Part shown: positions 26,333 to 32,978 of the stretch, in pieces
How the letters are laid out: each line of letters starts with the position of its first letter
Position numbering within the stretch: the stretch's first letter is position 1
Assembly (NCBI RefSeq): GCF_057098645.1
Contig: NZ_CM169472.1
DNA length: 64,000 bases
Strand: one strand, 5' to 3'
The notes under the pieces: model-generated
What the model saw: the letters and a program-made list of their open reading frames with translations, nothing else
What the model was told of the DNA's origin: nothing
The model's database searches: none
Translations under genes and position numbers: made by a program

Positions 26333-27352
26333 TTACCTGAAAGCAACAGTAGCCATAGCTAACGTCGTGTCGAGCATTCGGTTAGCAAAGCCCCATTCGT
26401 TATCGCACCAGACCAACGTTTTGATCAGGTGTGCGCCACTGACCCGGGTTTGGGTGCCATCGACAATGGCACTGTGCGGATCGTGGTTAAAATCTACAGA
26501 GACCAACGGCAATTCCGTATAGTCAACTATACCATGAAATGCACCTTGTGCTGCTTTTTGCAGCAACAGGTTGACTTCATTGGCTTTTACAGGTTTCTTC
26601 ACCGTCACGCTTAAATCGATTGCCGTCACATTTATGGTTGGCACACGTACCGCAATCGCTTCAAAGCGATCGTTAAATTGCGGAAAAAATCGTGTGATAC
26701 CGGCGGCCAGTTTAGTATCGACCGGAATGATCGACTGGCTGGCTGCCCGGGTGCGACGCAGGTCAGGATGGTATGCATCAATAACCTGTTGATCGTGCAT
26801 GGCGGAGTGAATTGTGGTCACAGTGCCGGACTCAATACCGTACGCATCATCTAACAATTTGATGACGGGAATTATGCAATTCGTGGTACAGGAAGCGTTA
26901 GAAACGATGCGGTGTTCCGCACGAAGTTGATCCTGATTGACGCCGTAAACAACGGTCGCGTCGAGATCGTTACTGCCAGGATGTGAAAAGAGCACTTTTT
27001 TGGCCCCGGCGGCAATATGCGCTTCGCCATGCTCGCGGGAGCCATATACGCCGGTGCAGTCGAGTACTACATCAACGCCAAGTTCACGCCAGGGGAGCGA
27101 TTGCAGTGAACGTTCATGCAATACGCGGATGGCGTCATCACCGACAAAAAGTTGATCGCGTTCCTGTCGTACTTCCCATGCAAAACGGCCATGGCTGGTG
27201 TCATATTTCAACAAATGCGCCATGCCCGCAGCATCCGCCAGTTCGTTGATTGCCACCACGGTAATTTCCGCCCGGCGTCCGGATTCATACAAAGCACGAA
27301 CCACATTACGCCCGATGCGACCGAAGCCATTTATCGCTACGCGTACGGTCAT
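26333..27352 (-). CDS. epd: D-erythrose-4-phosphate dehydrogenase
   Basis: ORF 26333..27436 trimmed to [37 protein letters not shown] (339 aa). Confidence 0.95.
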
Positions 27353-27579
27353 AGATCTCCTGCAAGGTTTTCCCTGAGCAAATTTGCCAGACAGAGTAAT
27401 CCAGCAAATCGTCCGGGGAAACCTTACCTGTCGCAAACTGCGACTGATTGGTTAATTGTCGAACATTTAATCGACTGAAACGCTTCAGCTAGGATAAGCG
27501 AAACGTGGAATAAAAGGAATGATTGTCCAGTCAAAGAAAACAATTATCTGACTTACGTCACGTTTTCAGCCCCGCCCCT

Positions 27580-27595
27580 GTGGAATTTATTCCAC
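27580..27595. promoter_or_regulatory. perfect 16-bp palindrome GTGGAATTTATTCCAC, candidate operator upstream of PPC/ECF operon
   Basis: 7-bp perfect inverted arms, 2-bp spacer; half-site GTGGAAT recurs at about 27505; about 130 bp upstream of first operon gene. Confidence 0.4.
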
Positions 27596-27723
27596 TTTGC
27601 AGAATCACGAATAAGCGTAGCAAAATCTTTTCGTTGTGCCGTCACAAACCCTGACTTATATCAGAATATGACTGATGCAGCGTCGATATTATCCGCAATA
27701 CGTCCGAGTTTCGGAGTACTCCA

Positions 27724-28155
27724 ATGATGACATTGCCCTACCCATATTCTTCCTCCGCACGCTTTTACGCACTGCGCCTCCTCCCCGGGCAGGAAGTTTT
27801 TTCCCAGCTACACGCTTTTGCACAGCAGCAGCAACTTCATGCCGCCTGGATTGCAGGCTGTACCGGTAGCCTGACTGACATCGCCTTGCGCTATGCCGGG
27901 CAAGAAGGCACCACGCTCCTGAACGGTACATTCGAAGTGATCTCACTAAACGGCACGTTGGAACAGAGTGGTGAGCATCTTCATCTCTGCGTTTCCGATC
28001 CACACGGCACGATGCTTGGCGGTCATATGATGCCCGGCTGTACCGTGCGGACCACGCTTGAACTGGTGATCGGTAGCCTTGAGGAACTGGCGTTTAGCCG
28101 CCAACCTTGCGCGCTTTCTGGTTACGACGAGTTGCATATTTCCCCCGTTAAATAA
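27724..28155 (+). CDS. PPC (DUF296) domain protein, first gene of ECF-transporter operon
   Basis: 143 aa; FEVISLNGTL...HLHLCVSDPHGTMLGGHMMPG...LELVIGSL matches PPC/DUF296 core pattern; GGAG RBS. Confidence 0.7.
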   Translation: MMTLPYPYSSSARFYALRLLPGQEVFSQLHAFAQQQQLHAAWIAGCTGSLTDIALRYAGQEGTTLLNGTFEVISLNGTLEQSGEHLHLCVSDPHGTMLGGHMMPGCTVRTTLELVIGSLEELAFSRQPCALSGYDELHISPVK

Positions 28156-28177
28156 CTACTTTCAGAGAGGTTTTCTT

Positions 28178-28756
28178 ATGGCGCGTAGCCACTTTTCCAG
28201 TCAGGCACTGGTGTTGATCGTTATATCTATCGCCATCAATATGATCGGCGGGCAACTGGCCAGCATGGTCAAATTACCTATATTTCTCGACTCCATCGGC
28301 ACACTTATTAGCGCGGTACTGCTTGGTCCGGTGATCGGAATGCTGACCGGCTTACTGACCAATTTACTCTGGGGATTGCTGACCGACCCGATCGCCGCCG
28401 CATTTGCACCCGTCGCGATGGTCATCGGCCTGGTCGCCGGTTGGCTGGCGCGAGCGGGTTGGTTTCGCACCCTGCCAAAAGTCGTTGTCAGCGGCGTGAT
28501 TATTACGCTTGCGGTAACGGTCGTCGCTGTACCGCTGCGTACTGCGCTGTTCGGCGGTGTCACCGGTAGCGGAGCCGATTTGTTCGTTGCCTGGATGCAC
28601 TCTATGGGGCAAAACCTGGTGGAGTCGGTGGCGATTACGGTGATAGGCGCAAACCTGGTCGATAAAATTCTTACAGCGGTGATTGTCTGGCTTTTACTGC
28701 GCCAGCTGCCGATTCGCACCACGCGCCATTTTCCGGCAATGGCTGCCGTGCGCTAA
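28178..28756 (+). CDS. ECF transporter substrate-specific (S) component, substrate unknown
   Basis: ORF 28079..28756 trimmed to MARSHFSSQALVLIVISIAINMIGG (192 aa), about 6 TM helices; AGAGAGG RBS 7 nt upstream; 22 nt after PPC gene stop. Confidence 0.7.
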   Translation: MARSHFSSQALVLIVISIAINMIGGQLASMVKLPIFLDSIGTLISAVLLGPVIGMLTGLLTNLLWGLLTDPIAAAFAPVAMVIGLVAGWLARAGWFRTLPKVVVSGVIITLAVTVVAVPLRTALFGGVTGSGADLFVAWMHSMGQNLVESVAITVIGANLVDKILTAVIVWLLLRQLPIRTTRHFPAMAAVR

Positions 28757-29464
28757 ATGCATCCGTTTACATCCTTAACGCTGTGGGCGCTGGCGGCCTG
28801 CACCACGCTTATCCTGCCCGCGCAGACCATTTTGCCGATCTATAGCGCGGCGACCTTTTTTTGCCTTATTGCGCTAAAGGCCACGCGGCGGCGGGCAAAA
28901 TATGTCGTCTGGCTGATGTTCTCGCTGGGAGCCGGGCTGTGGCTGGTACACGGTGGCTGGCTGACAGAATGGCTAAGCGGCACGCCACGCTCGCCTGAAC
29001 GGTGGACGCATGCTATTACGCTCTGGTTGCGCATTCTGGCTATCGTTTCAACCTCACAGTTGTGGATGCAGTACGTCCCCGTACAGCGCTTTATCCGCGC
29101 CCTGTTCGCCTCCCGCCTGCCGCCGGGCGTCGCTTATCTGTTTGCCGGGCCGTTATTGGTCGTTGAGCAATTAAAACGGCAATTAGCGATTATTCATGAA
29201 GCACAGCGTGCGCGCGGCGTGCCGCTGGATGAGGGCTGGTATCAGCGTTTACGTGCGATGCCCGCGTTAATTATTCCGCTAACACACAATGCGCTAAACG
29301 ATCTTGCTGTCCGCGGTGCGGCGCTGGATATGCGGGCATTTCGGATCCACAACCGACGAACAACGTTGTGGGCACCAGCCGATAGCACCCTACAACGCGT
29401 AGCGCGTTACACCATTATCTTGCTGATGCTGACAGAATTCGGAGCGTGGATATGGTTACGTTAG
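28757..29464 (+). CDS. ECF transporter transmembrane (T) component (EcfT/CbiQ family)
   Basis: 235 aa multi-TM; start codon immediately follows S-gene stop (TAAATG). Confidence 0.7.
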   Translation: MHPFTSLTLWALAACTTLILPAQTILPIYSAATFFCLIALKATRRRAKYVVWLMFSLGAGLWLVHGGWLTEWLSGTPRSPERWTHAITLWLRILAIVSTSQLWMQYVPVQRFIRALFASRLPPGVAYLFAGPLLVVEQLKRQLAIIHEAQRARGVPLDEGWYQRLRAMPALIIPLTHNALNDLAVRGAALDMRAFRIHNRRTTLWAPADSTLQRVARYTIILLMLTEFGAWIWLR

Positions 29465-30129
29465 AACAGTTCCGTTATTGCCCGACACACTCAACGCATC
29501 CTCCGTTCTGTTATGACTTTCACTATGTCAAACCGGGGATGGTCGCCATCTTTGGTGACAACGGCAGTGGCAAAAGTACGCTGGCACAGCTGATGGCGGG
29601 CTGGTATCCGGACTTTCTGCCAGGAGAGATAACAGGCACGGGGACGCTCCTCGGTACGCCCATTGGGCATCTCCCGCTTAATGAACAATCCGCCACCATC
29701 CAGCTCGTCCAGCAATCGCCCTATTTGCAGCTCTCCGGCTGTACCTTTAGCGTGGAAGAAGAAGTTGCCTTTGGGCCAGAAAATCTGTGTCTTGCTGAAA
29801 AAGAGATTATGGCGAGGATTGATGCCGCCCTGACTCTGACCGAGTGCCAGCCGTTGCGCCATCGTCACCCGGCAACACTCTCTGGTGGAGAGACACAGCG
29901 CGTGGTCATCGCCTGCGCCATCGCGATGCAGCCAAAACTATTAATTCTTGATGAAGCCTTTAGCCGCCTGACGCCGCAGGCCAGCGAAATGCTGTTGCAG
30001 CGCTTACAACACTGGGCGTTTGAACGTGGTTCGCTGATTATTCTTTTTGAACGTCATCGCACACCTTTCCTGAACTACTGCCAGCAAGCGTGGCAATTGC
30101 AAAACGGAGCGCTCCAGCCACTATGTTAA
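29452..30129 (+). CDS. ECF/ABC transporter ATPase 1 (canonical motifs)
   Basis: ORF 29446..30129; Walker A GDNGSGKST, Q-loop, signature LSGGETQRV, Walker B LLILDEA; overlaps T gene end. Confidence 0.8.
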   Translation: MVTLEQFRYCPTHSTHPPFCYDFHYVKPGMVAIFGDNGSGKSTLAQLMAGWYPDFLPGEITGTGTLLGTPIGHLPLNEQSATIQLVQQSPYLQLSGCTFSVEEEVAFGPENLCLAEKEIMARIDAALTLTECQPLRHRHPATLSGGETQRVVIACAIAMQPKLLILDEAFSRLTPQASEMLLQRLQHWAFERGSLIILFERHRTPFLNYCQQAWQLQNGALQPLC

Positions 30130-30800
30130 CGTTAAATCAGATATCTTATCGCTGGCCTGGCGCGGCAACGGATTGTCTTTGCGACATTTCTCTGCAACTC
30201 AAACAAGGTGAATGGTTGGCGTTGACCGGTGACAATGGCGCAGGGAAATCGACGCTGTTACGAGTAATGGCAGGTCTTCTTACGCCCACAGCCGGTACGG
30301 TTATGCTGCAACAACAGGCGATGAAAAACCTGAAAAACCGCCAGCGCGCGGCAAAGATTGGCGTACTGTTTCAGGAAGCGGAAAACCAACTTTTTCACAG
30401 CACCGTCGCTGACGAGATCGCATTTGGTTTGAAACTGCAAAAATGCCCGGCGGATGAAATCACTCAACGTACCCATGCTGCCCTACAATGTTGTCAGTTA
30501 GCAGACACTGCCAGCGCGCACCCGTTGGATCTGCATAGTGCGCAGCGACGGATGGTCGCCGTCGCCTGCCTGGAAGCACTCTCTCCGCCACTATTGCTGC
30601 TGGACGAGCCGAGTCGGGATTTTGACGAAAATTGGTTGAGCGTGTTTGAAAACTGGCTGGAGAAGTGCCGCCAGCGAGGCACGAGCGTCGTAGCAATCAG
30701 TCATGACGCCGCATTTACCCGGCGTCATTTCTCTCGTGTGGTGCGACTGGAAGATGGTCTAATCAGGATCATTAATCCACCAGACGATATTCACCCGTAG
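30123..30800 (+). CDS. ECF/ABC transporter ATPase 2 (degenerate signature motif)
   Basis: ORF 30090..30800 trimmed to MLTLNQISYRWPG; Walker A TGDNGAGKST, Walker B LLLLDEP, H-loop ISHD, signature replaced by LHSAQRR; ATGTTAA start/stop overlap with ATPase 1. Confidence 0.8.
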   Translation: MLTLNQISYRWPGAATDCLCDISLQLKQGEWLALTGDNGAGKSTLLRVMAGLLTPTAGTVMLQQQAMKNLKNRQRAAKIGVLFQEAENQLFHSTVADEIAFGLKLQKCPADEITQRTHAALQCCQLADTASAHPLDLHSAQRRMVAVACLEALSPPLLLLDEPSRDFDENWLSVFENWLEKCRQRGTSVVAISHDAAFTRRHFSRVVRLEDGLIRIINPPDDIHP

Positions 30801-31485
30801 CGGTCATCATTAAGGTCAAATTTGCAGGCAGACTCTCTTCCAGCACCCGGCGAACATTCGGCCCGTCGGTACGGTCATAAAAAGCTTCTGCGTCTGCCAG
30901 CGATAACCCTCCCGCCAGCTTGCGCCCCACCAGTCGTTCCCGCAACGCAGTAGCTGGCGCATTGATAAAGATCGAGAAATCACAAAATTGCGCAAGCTGG
31001 CACCACTTCTCGTCGTCCAGCAACAACCAGTTTCCTTCAACGATGACGAGTGGTGCGGTAACGTGCAACGCATCTTCAACAGGATCATGCTTTTGTCGAT
31101 CATACTGCGGCCACGTACAATCCCCTTCCACGACCTGGCGCAGATTTTCCGCCAGTTTCGCTACGTCAAATGTCTCTGGTGCGCCTTTGAAGGGGCGCAA
31201 TTGATGCGCATCCAGCCAGCTATTGTAATGGTGAAAACCATCCATCGGCAGCGTCTGAATAGCGGGCAGTTCCGGGTCTTGTTGCGCGAGATATTCCCAG
31301 AAGGTGGTTAGGGTAGATTTACCCGTCCCCGGCGGAGCGCAAAGAAAAACCACGGTTCGGCGCTGCGGATTTACCGTCTGTAAGGCCGCCAGCATACGCA
31401 GCAACGGTTTATGCACGCGTTCTATCTCTTCATCATGGTACTGCGCTTGCACGTTCAGCCCATTCACCGTTAATTCAATTTTCAC
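30772..31485 (-). CDS. yggC: P-loop NTPase YggC (uridine kinase-like)
   Basis: 237 aa; MKIELTVNGLNVQAQYHDEEIERVHKPLLRMLAAL...FLCAPPGTGKSTL. Confidence 0.9.
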   Translation of the reverse strand: MKIELTVNGLNVQAQYHDEEIERVHKPLLRMLAALQTVNPQRRTVVFLCAPPGTGKSTLTTFWEYLAQQDPELPAIQTLPMDGFHHYNSWLDAHQLRPFKGAPETFDVAKLAENLRQVVEGDCTWPQYDRQKHDPVEDALHVTAPLVIVEGNWLLLDDEKWCQLAQFCDFSIFINAPATALRERLVGRKLAGGLSLADAEAFYDRTDGPNVRRVLEESLPANLTLMMTATGEYRLVD

Positions 31486-32012: not shown

Positions 32013-32978
32013 TCAATGCAGGGAGTCTATTATATTACACGTTTGGTCCGCGCCGCCGATCAGTAATGTCTGCGTCCGCACCCCATTCGCCGTCTGTTGG
32101 ATACCGTTCACCAGCTCGCCGCCCGTGACGCCCGTAGCGCTAAAGAGGATATCGTTCCCCCTCACCAGTTCGTCGAGCGAGTACACACGGTTAACGTCAA
32201 CGCCCATTGCCTTGCAACGCTTGCGCTCCTGCTCTGCAATCTGCCGATTTTCCGTGTAATCCCCTTTAGCCTGACAAAAATCGATTAATTCCGCCTGCAT
32301 ATCTCCGCCTAACGCTTTGACTGCACAGGCAGAAATCACGCCTTCCGGCGCGCCGCCGATGGTGTACATCACGTCGTAAGGATTATCCTGCCAGCAGGTC
32401 AGCACGCTGGCGGCGACATCGCCATCCGGCAGGGCAAAAACTTTCACCCCCAGCTGTGTTGCTTCCTCAATCGCGGCACTCAGGCGCGGTTTATCCAGCG
32501 TAACCATGCGCAGCTTGTCCAGCGGTTTACCTAACGCCCGCGCCACGTTACGCAAGTTGTCCGCCAGAGGCAAAGACAGATCAATCGCCCCGGCAGCCAG
32601 TCGATTAACAACCAGCTTTTTCATATACATATCGGGCGCATGTAACAGGCTATCTCGAGGGGCGAAAGCCATGACCGCCAGCGCATTGCTCTGCCCCATC
32701 GCCACCATCCGCGTGCCTTCAATGGGATCAACCGCGATATCGACTTCTGGCCCATCGCCTTTGCCCACCTCTTCGCCAATCCACAGCATCGGCGCATGGT
32801 CAATTTCTCCTTCGCCGATAACCACTCGTCCACGAAAAGCGACGTCGTTTAATGCCTGGCGCATCGCGGTGACCGCCAGGCCATCAATTTTATTTTTGTC
32901 GCCACATCCGGTTTGCGGCCAGGCAGCCAACGCTGCCTGTTCCGTAACGCGAAATAATGGCCACGCCAGGGACATCAT
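32013..32978 (-). CDS. yggF: fructose-1,6-bisphosphatase class II paralogue (GlpX-like)
   Basis: 321 aa; MMSLAWPLFRVTEQAALAAWPQTGCGDKNKIDGLAVTAMRQ. Confidence 0.9.
   Translation of the reverse strand: MMSLAWPLFRVTEQAALAAWPQTGCGDKNKIDGLAVTAMRQALNDVAFRGRVVIGEGEIDHAPMLWIGEEVGKGDGPEVDIAVDPIEGTRMVAMGQSNALAVMAFAPRDSLLHAPDMYMKKLVVNRLAAGAIDLSLPLADNLRNVARALGKPLDKLRMVTLDKPRLSAAIEEATQLGVKVFALPDGDVAASVLTCWQDNPYDVMYTIGGAPEGVISACAVKALGGDMQAELIDFCQAKGDYTENRQIAEQERKRCKAMGVDVNRVYSLDELVRGNDILFSATGVTGGELVNGIQQTANGVRTQTLLIGGADQTCNIIDSLH

Follow-up and report, generated by a model that had tools for sequence, protein, structure and literature searches.

Do the two ATPases of an energy-coupling factor (ECF) transporter of Escherichia coli form two equivalent ATP sites, or is only one of the two sites hydrolytic? 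The question is raised by a five-gene locus in a 64,000-nt stretch of contig NZ_CM169472.1 (NCBI RefSeq assembly GCF_057098645.1), which is called the window below and whose numbering is used throughout. Bases 27500–30900 are 100% identical to several O145 genomes, and the window is E. coli O145:H28 chromosome. According to the RefSeq annotation of the identical O145:H28 stretch, five genes lie on the same strand in the order lmiA (PPC/DUF296)–S–T–A1–A2, flanked by epd and yggC. The locus is O island 119 of enterohaemorrhagic E. coli (EHEC) O157:H7, z4267–z4271, with which it shares the same five genes, the position between epd and yggC, and the PhoP box. An initial annotation, made from the letters alone, had pointed out that the second ATPase, A2, carries a degenerate ATP-binding cassette (ABC) signature, and had predicted one catalytically competent and one degenerate nucleotide site in the heterodimer. 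The motif comparisons described here suggest that the A1–A2 heterodimer does probably combine one hydrolytic site with one ATP-binding, hydrolysis-impaired site.

The A2 signature and the A1 H-loop

The A2 gene (z4271) occupies positions 30123–30800 of the plus strand and encodes a protein of 225 aa that matches exactly the RefSeq coding sequence (CDS) product WP_000956884.1, 'ABC transporter ATP-binding protein'. It belongs to PF00005 (E 2.2e-27, 96.8 bits against a cut-off of 25). In its translation the motifs follow in canonical order and spacing: Walker A GDNGAGKST (30228–30254), the Q-loop with Q84 (30372–30374) and after it a Q-helix-like motif, QEAENQLF, Walker B LLLLDE (30591–30608), the D-loop SRDFD (30612–30626) and the H-loop VAISHDA with His194 (30690–30710), all on the plus strand. 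The deviation is confined to the signature residues, which read LHSAQ (30531–30545, inside HPLDLHSAQRRMVAVA at 30519–30566) and stand 20 residues ahead of Walker B. Three independent alignment methods agree on the column to which this motif belongs. In a phmmer search against PDB chains, LHSAQRRMVAVA of A2 paired column for column with LSGGQKQRIAIA of ABCB4/ABCB1, and LHSAQ occupied the LSGGQ column in MAFFT alignments both of 285 nucleotide-binding domains (NBDs) and of a curated set of 16.

The same picture emerged from 120 ortholog cluster representatives drawn from Escherichia, Salmonella, Citrobacter, Klebsiella, Atlantibacter and Leclercia. Every A2 representative with an intact region had LH[S/T/A]AQ, and LSGGQ was found in none of the 120. 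At the DNA level, the stretch is found with an identity of 99% or above in 29 genomes, of which the 15 listed match it at 100%, and with an identity of 95–99% in 3318 more. The initial description of A2, with a degenerate signature beside a retained Walker A, Walker B and H-loop, is thus borne out, and the two doubts attached to it, that a canonical LSGGQ was hidden by sequencing error or that the motif had been assigned to the wrong place, are both answered. In six family members at 45–58% identity, the flanks of the signature, H133-P-L-D-L137 and R142-R-M-V-A146, are invariant, and variation (H/N, S/A, A/G and Q/E) is seen at the four positions that they enclose. It is these four signature positions that an NBD normally conserves best.

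The A1 gene (z4270; 29452–30129, plus strand; PF00005, E 2e-21) had been described as carrying canonical motifs. This held for Walker A (GDNGSGKST, 29554–29580), the signature (LSGGE, 29878–29892) and Walker B (LLILDE, 29938–29955), and A1 also retains the A-loop Tyr, the Walker A Lys, the Walker B Asp-Glu and the Q-loop Gln; two further deviations had been overlooked. The D-loop, FSRLT (29959–29973), is missing its Asp, and in the H-loop region, IILFERH (30037–30057), it is Arg201 and not a His that falls in the switch-histidine column in both MAFFT alignments, with His202 next to it. Like the motifs of A2, these were read from the translation of the plus strand. The Q-helix region of A1, QQSPYLQL, has a Tyr at the acidic position of the motif as defined previously (PMC6828968).

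Both deviations of A1 are shared by its orthologs. Across the 120 clusters, LSGGE is conserved and the D-loop segment 'AFSRL' is invariant (120 of 120), and 'LFER' is near-invariant. The residue after it is free: N is commonest, followed by R, H, T, D, K, Q and others, and it is Asn in Citrobacter and Providencia. Because this position is free across orthologs, His202 of Escherichia A1 is not a conserved catalytic residue. The spacing is in line with the alignment columns. In tandem ECF-type ATPases, the distance from the Walker B Asp to the His of the first NBD is 33 or 34 residues, with 39 proteins showing each value, and 'EH' is the commonest context of this His. Glu200-Arg201 of A1 fits the spacing-34 'EH' class, with Arg replacing His.

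The two genes are separate and translationally coupled, as had been stated initially. The A2 start codon (ATG, 30123) lies within ATGTTAA and overlaps the A1 stop codon (TAA, 30127–30129), which gives a 7-nt overlap. A frameshifted fusion is ruled out by this overlap, by the annotation of two CDSs, and by the linker of ~60 aa that is found in genuinely fused A1–A2 relatives.

In an ABC dimer, each ATP site is made up of the Walker A, Walker B, Q-loop and H-loop of one NBD and the signature of the other, the two domains lying head to tail. This composite geometry has been shown for ECF modules (PMC10368641). Because the NBDs are arranged head to tail, the loss of the switch histidine in A1 and the LHSAQ of A2 would fall in the same site; a signature deviation in one subunit and a catalytic-side deviation in its partner are thereby assigned to one composite site. 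The initial prediction of one competent and one degenerate site, which had been drawn from the signature of A2, is strengthened by this second change on the A1 side.

We propose that a dedicated ECF-type ABC importer, S–T–A1–A2, has A1 and A2 as its two ATPase subunits, which would be paired 1:1, head to tail, on T and would form two unequal ATP sites. Site II, composed of A2 Walker A, Walker B, Q-loop and His194 together with A1 LSGGE, has the full consensus catalytic set and would be the hydrolytic site. Site I, composed of A1 Walker A, Walker B and Q-loop together with A2 LHSAQ, keeps the ATP-binding residues and would be left without the switch histidine (Arg201) and without the signature Ser-Gly-Gly that clamps the gamma-phosphate. 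ATP bound at site I would be hydrolysed slowly or not at all and would have a structural or regulatory role, and one ATP would be turned over per cycle, at site II. The motifs, their alignment and conservation, the purifying selection and the joint occurrence of both deviations in fused relatives are observed; the heterodimer geometry, taken from established ABC/ECF structures, and the catalytic consequence are inferred.

Several points weigh against such a division of labour. Loss of the Walker B Glu has been called a hallmark of degenerate sites (PMC7544095), and A1 retains this residue as Glu168, within 'LDEAFSRL', which is invariant in the 120 clusters. A HMMER pairwise alignment can place His202 on the switch His by way of a two-residue insertion, and in E. 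coli itself this histidine may play some role or some residual catalysis may persist. LHSAQ keeps a Ser and a Gln and might still be in contact with ATP. The A1 D-loop FSRLT, which has no Asp, faces site II, the supposedly competent one. Finally, in the one study found, deleting z4270 and z4271 produced no phenotype (PMC7667037).

Asymmetry among relatives and known transporters

Relatives were sought among 50%-identity representatives with A2. Two single-NBD relatives, at 55–58% identity, have LHAGQ, and nearly all of the remaining closest representatives are fused two-NBD ECF-type proteins. Among these, P0243 (503 aa) is an A1–A2 fusion with LSGGE and FERH in its first half and LHAGQ and SHD in its second, and P0255 and P0263 are T–A1–A2 fusions with LSGGE and LER[N/T] followed by LNSAE and [S/T]HD. 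The existence of A1–A2 and T–A1–A2 fusions supports a 1:1 pairing of A1 and A2. Relatives keep the A2 signature as LH[STA]AQ or LN[SA][AG][QE]. The gene order PPC–S–T–A–A recurs at two metagenomic loci, L002 (fused ATPase) and L005 (split), in Citrobacter beside yggC (L006), in Providencia (L008) and in E. marmotae (L088). The two deviations, in the second signature and in the first H-loop, occur together in Citrobacter, Providencia, two metagenomic loci, the fused A1–A2 protein and the T–A1–A2 fusions.

The arrangement of the T domain differs among the fused relatives. Among P0255 and P0263 (loci L003 and L004), P0246 and others, it is N-terminal in some (T–A1–A2, 650–680 aa) and apparently C-terminal in others (~790–860 aa), and such fusions of T with a tandem ATPase put all of the ECF energising module on one polypeptide chain.

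In 136 tandem proteins both domains could be extracted, and the distribution of defects between them was uneven. The signature was non-canonical in the second NBD of 101 proteins (74%) and in the first NBD of 11, the switch His was missing from the first NBD in 34 and from the second in two, and the Walker B Glu was missing from the first in 10 (it is D-Q in P0248 and D-A in P0251) and from the second in one. A catalytic defect in the first NBD was present in 37 proteins, 35 of which combine it with a degenerate second signature. Judged by these motifs, the E. coli A1/A2 pair is one member of a broad and consistently lopsided group, and the high share of non-canonical second signatures among the nearest tandem ECF ATPases suggests a common design and not an oddity.

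Genome contigs were also scanned with an A2-family alignment, using Walker A and Q-loop patterns. The matches listed were mostly generic ABC ATPases, which were kept as controls; of the matches listed, those from Citrobacter (L006), Providencia (L008) and Arthrobacter (L007) were informative. Among the controls in this set, a pair of adjacent Firmicutes ATPase genes taken to be EcfA/EcfA' (L010) had LSGGQ in both subunits and His in both H-loops. Seven further loci (L025, L064, L067, L069, L076, L078 and L081) hold adjacent ATPase pairs in which an LPxGx or LxxGx signature stands beside a partner with 'EQ' in place of the H-loop His. By their motifs these pairs resemble LivG/LivF, and their co-degeneration of one site is analogous, in another importer family. 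A co-degenerate site therefore appears to be general among heterodimeric importer ATPases too.

The arrangement in A1/A2 has counterparts among asymmetric ABC transporters such as TM287/288, TAP1/TAP2, BmrCD, EfrCD, CFTR and Pdr5 and the fused importers RbsA and NupO. These also have two non-identical NBDs, in which the signature of one and the H-loop side of the other deviate in a single site and the second site keeps the consensus, and in them too the pattern is conserved under purifying selection. TAP2 has LAAGQ, CFTR has LSHGH, and in TAP1 the His is replaced by Gln. They differ from A1/A2 in that they typically lose the Walker B Glu on the degenerate side (PMC7544095), whereas A1 keeps it, and in that A1/A2 belong to an ECF-type (type III) importer, unlike the classic examples of degenerate sites. 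Such sites are frequent in exporters (PMC3971661), and among importers the fused ATPases RbsA and NupO have been noted to have them (PMC11466899). No description of a degenerate site in an ECF transporter was found in the open-access full-text literature. ABC heterodimers with a degenerate site are themselves familiar from textbooks, so that the gain is incremental.

Within the ECF class, one comparison is with the group II module EcfA/EcfA'/EcfT of Lactobacillus brevis, L. delbrueckii and Thermotoga maritima (4HUQ, 5JSZ and 4HLU), which likewise has two different ATPase genes. EcfA1/EcfA2 are the best non-eukaryotic PDB matches of A1 and A2 (E 1e-29 and 2e-24), and the top NCBIfam models for both proteins are ECF_ATPase_1, ECF_ATPase_2 and cbiO (107–150 bits). 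The Q-helix-like motif of A2 is also shared with the group II module, as are, probably, the two XRG motifs read in T. A1 and A2 nevertheless score only 121–150 bits against the EcfA1/EcfA2 equivalog models TIGR04520/TIGR04521, under the cut-offs of 315 and 330, and their matches to the EcfA models stop at about position 223–231 of 269–279, the C-terminal extension of ~50 residues being missing. Unlike group II, the z4268–z4271 operon includes its own S gene, a dedicated, group-I-like layout. In model group II systems both subunits have LSGGQ and both Walker B glutamates are needed (L. delbrueckii, PMC10368641), whereas in A1/A2 one signature and one H-loop are non-canonical.

The length of the two ATPases varies between lineages. 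Both are ~225 aa long in E. coli and Citrobacter, where they end just after the NBD core. The orthologs of Providencia (L008, 3657–5334) and of metagenomic locus L005 (4157–5819) are ~270–285 aa long, with C-terminal extensions of ~50 residues like those of EcfA/EcfA'. From this comparison, the C-terminal domain seems to have disappeared from both ATPases in the Escherichia/Citrobacter lineage.

The other relevant ECF group is that of the YkoD-type fused 'duplicated ATPase' (Bacillus ykoEDC), since the closest A2 representatives are nearly all two-NBD ECF-type proteins, some with T fused to them. As in A1/A2, the second signature is degenerate in this fused group, and the first H-loop often is. 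YkoD itself, compared here by its description, has been described solely as two fused ATPase domains (PMC5037267). The A1–A2 fusion P0243 lies in a PPC–S–T–AA context; in E. coli the two NBDs are encoded by separate, overlapping genes.

These comparisons allow a broader proposal, which we advance tentatively and hold as possible, on somewhat less than an even footing: a large clade of ECF-type importers, consisting of the split Enterobacterales A1/A2 pairs and most fused 'duplicated ATPase' modules, may have a built-in degenerate site and a single hydrolytic site, unlike model group II, where both sites are required. Mechanistic studies of ECF transporters build on group II systems, which have two consensus sites, both of them needed (PMC10368641). 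If the proposal made here for A1/A2 is true, the O island 119 system would be a natural and genetically tractable single-site ECF transporter, possibly with a functional link to the co-conserved LmiA, and an asymmetric ECF module in E. coli could test how many ATP molecules are used per toppling cycle of the S component and what a non-hydrolytic site contributes.

Alternative explanations

The strongest alternative is that both sites are active, LHSAQ and the FER-H loop being lineage-specific functional variants and two ATP being used per cycle as in the model group II ECF transporters. In detail, Ser139 and the backbone of Ala140 would touch the gamma-phosphate, and His202 or Arg201 would replace the switch His. 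A1 does retain its Walker A Lys, its Walker B Asp-Glu with an invariant Glu, its Q-loop Gln and its A-loop Tyr, the His202 of Escherichia adjoins the canonical column, and the L. delbrueckii ECF transporter requires both Walker B glutamates (PMC10368641). However, His202 is not conserved (Citrobacter and Providencia have Asn, and R, T, D, K or Q occur elsewhere), and the very signature positions that are ordinarily most conserved in an NBD are the four that vary in the A2 family. Relatives with a degenerate second signature have, moreover, also lost the Walker B Glu of the first NBD (P0248 and P0251) or its His; these losses point to relaxed catalytic constraint on precisely site I. On balance we regard two active sites as unlikely, though this explanation deserves to be taken seriously, and favour one hydrolytic and one impaired site.

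It could also be argued that A2, or the entire transporter, is a decaying and dispensable remnant, with the odd signature reflecting drift towards a pseudogene. The operon is missing from K-12 and from 39% of complete E. coli genomes, deletions of z4268–z4271 left adherence and expression of the LEE (locus of enterocyte effacement) unchanged (PMC7667037), truncated variants of A2 exist in the databases (e.g., the 194-aa P0009), and both ATPases are without the C-terminal extension of the Providencia and L005 proteins. The substitution pattern does not fit decay, however. Since dS was saturated between E. coli and Citrobacter (>1, and not computable for A1), that comparison was set aside in favour of E. 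marmotae and of an E. coli allele that is more divergent. With E. marmotae as the reference, A2 had a dN/dS of 0.16, A1 of 0.10, T of 0.11 and S of 0.05; with the 97%-identical E. coli allele, the values were 0.14 (A2) and 0.13 (A1). A1 and A2 are thus under purifying selection, and A2 has values like those of A1 and T. The open reading frame of A2 is full-length at 95–100% identity in 3317 genomes, and Escherichia, Providencia and the genera between them retain the non-canonical motif with its invariant flanks, as do metagenomic relatives at 45–58% identity. We consider decay highly improbable.

That the motif is mis-assigned or an artefact of sequencing or assembly, with the signature lying elsewhere or a frameshift hiding an LSGGQ or an A1–A2 fusion, was possible a priori, and fused relatives such as P0243 exist, but its probability is negligible given the agreement of three alignment methods, the recurrence of the same DNA in the many genomes counted above, and the ~60-aa linker, not a 7-nt overlap, in the fused proteins. 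Together, selection, alignments and orthologs effectively exclude both decay and mis-assignment.

The operon and its neighbourhood

Upstream of the two ATPase genes, and on the same strand, lie the genes of the other transporter components. The S component (z4268; 28178–28756) scored 35.3 bits against PF12822 (cut-off 30.7) and is annotated in RefSeq as 'ECF transporter S component'. Its nearest NCBIfam model is that of the CD3073-family putative S component, at 136 bits, under the equivalog cut-off of 180. A sequence search found no relatives of S among PDB sequences. A search for S homologs returned only close Enterobacteriaceae orthologs (80–99% identity) and gave no clue to the substrate, and no riboswitch was found upstream of the operon, hence no hint of a vitamin. 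The T component (z4269; 28757–29464) is annotated in RefSeq as 'energy-coupling factor transporter transmembrane component T'. It matched Pfam CbiQ with an E-value of 8.5e-5 and 22.7 bits, slightly under the gathering score of 25, and had no NCBIfam match. Two XRG motifs of the kind found in coupling helices can be read from its translation, ARG at residues 152–154 (29210–29218) and VRG at residues 185–187 (29309–29317). A gap of 22 nt separates lmiA from S, the S and T genes abut, and T and A1 overlap by 13 nt.

The first gene of the locus, lmiA (z4267; 27724–28155, plus strand in the RefSeq annotation), encodes a PPC/DUF296-domain DNA-binding protein (Pfam PF03479, E 3.5e-28) with PDB relatives 2HX0/2NMU (E 7e-75). 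The PhoP box of its promoter, GACTTACGTCACGTTTT, has an exact and single match in the window, at 27550–27566 of the plus strand, where none is expected by chance; the motif and the binding of PhoP at the lmiA promoter have been reported (PMC7667037). LmiA is an activator of the LEE that is itself activated by PhoP and induced by low Mg2+, and lmiA has been published as a horizontally acquired LEE regulator (PMC7667037). In the same study, z4268 and z4269 were labelled hypothetical, the label of z4270 and z4271 being putative ABC ATP-binding protein; the ECF transporter was unrecognised and the motifs of the ATPases went unremarked. In EHEC, the four ECF transporter genes adjoin a virulence regulator in O island 119 and have so far been treated as unknowns (PMC7667037).

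The gene lmiA also stands directly upstream of the ECF S gene in E. marmotae (L088), Citrobacter (L006, at the epd/yggC position) and Providencia (L008) and at metagenomic loci L002 and L005. The adjacency of lmiA and S across genera suggests that lmiA has long been tied to the transporter in function. It also suggests that the lmiA–transporter locus is ancestral and was lost later in K-12-like lineages, rather than being a recent acquisition of EHEC.

Among 5426 complete E. coli genomes, 3326 (61%) have the A1–A2 stretch, at 95–100% identity and with two CDSs in every listed example, and in 3317 E. coli genomes 80% or more of it is present. At this locus K-12 is without an ECF transporter, but 61% of complete E. 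coli genomes have one. In K-12 (L086, 4902–5045), 144 unrelated bases take the place of lmiA–S–T–A1–A2, which in the window corresponds to 27562–30840. Homology between the window and K-12 ends at 27561, within the published PhoP box, and picks up again at 30841.

In the RefSeq annotation, the flanking genes are both on the minus strand, epd ending near 27352 and yggC lying at 30772–31485. The 3' ends of A2 and the convergent yggC overlap by 29 nt (30772–30800), so that the stop codon of each lies inside the coding sequence of the other, and no terminator-like structure was found between the two ends (30772–30800). The final ~23 codons of yggC are unlike between the window and K-12, and the C-terminal third of YggC is far more diverged than the remainder. 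Further along, a class II fructose-bisphosphatase gene (a yggF/glpX homolog) is intact in the window at 32013–32978; in E. coli FDAARGOS_1256 (L087, 5162–5477) the gene, downstream of fumE, is annotated as broken, with a short CDS and a pseudogene fragment.

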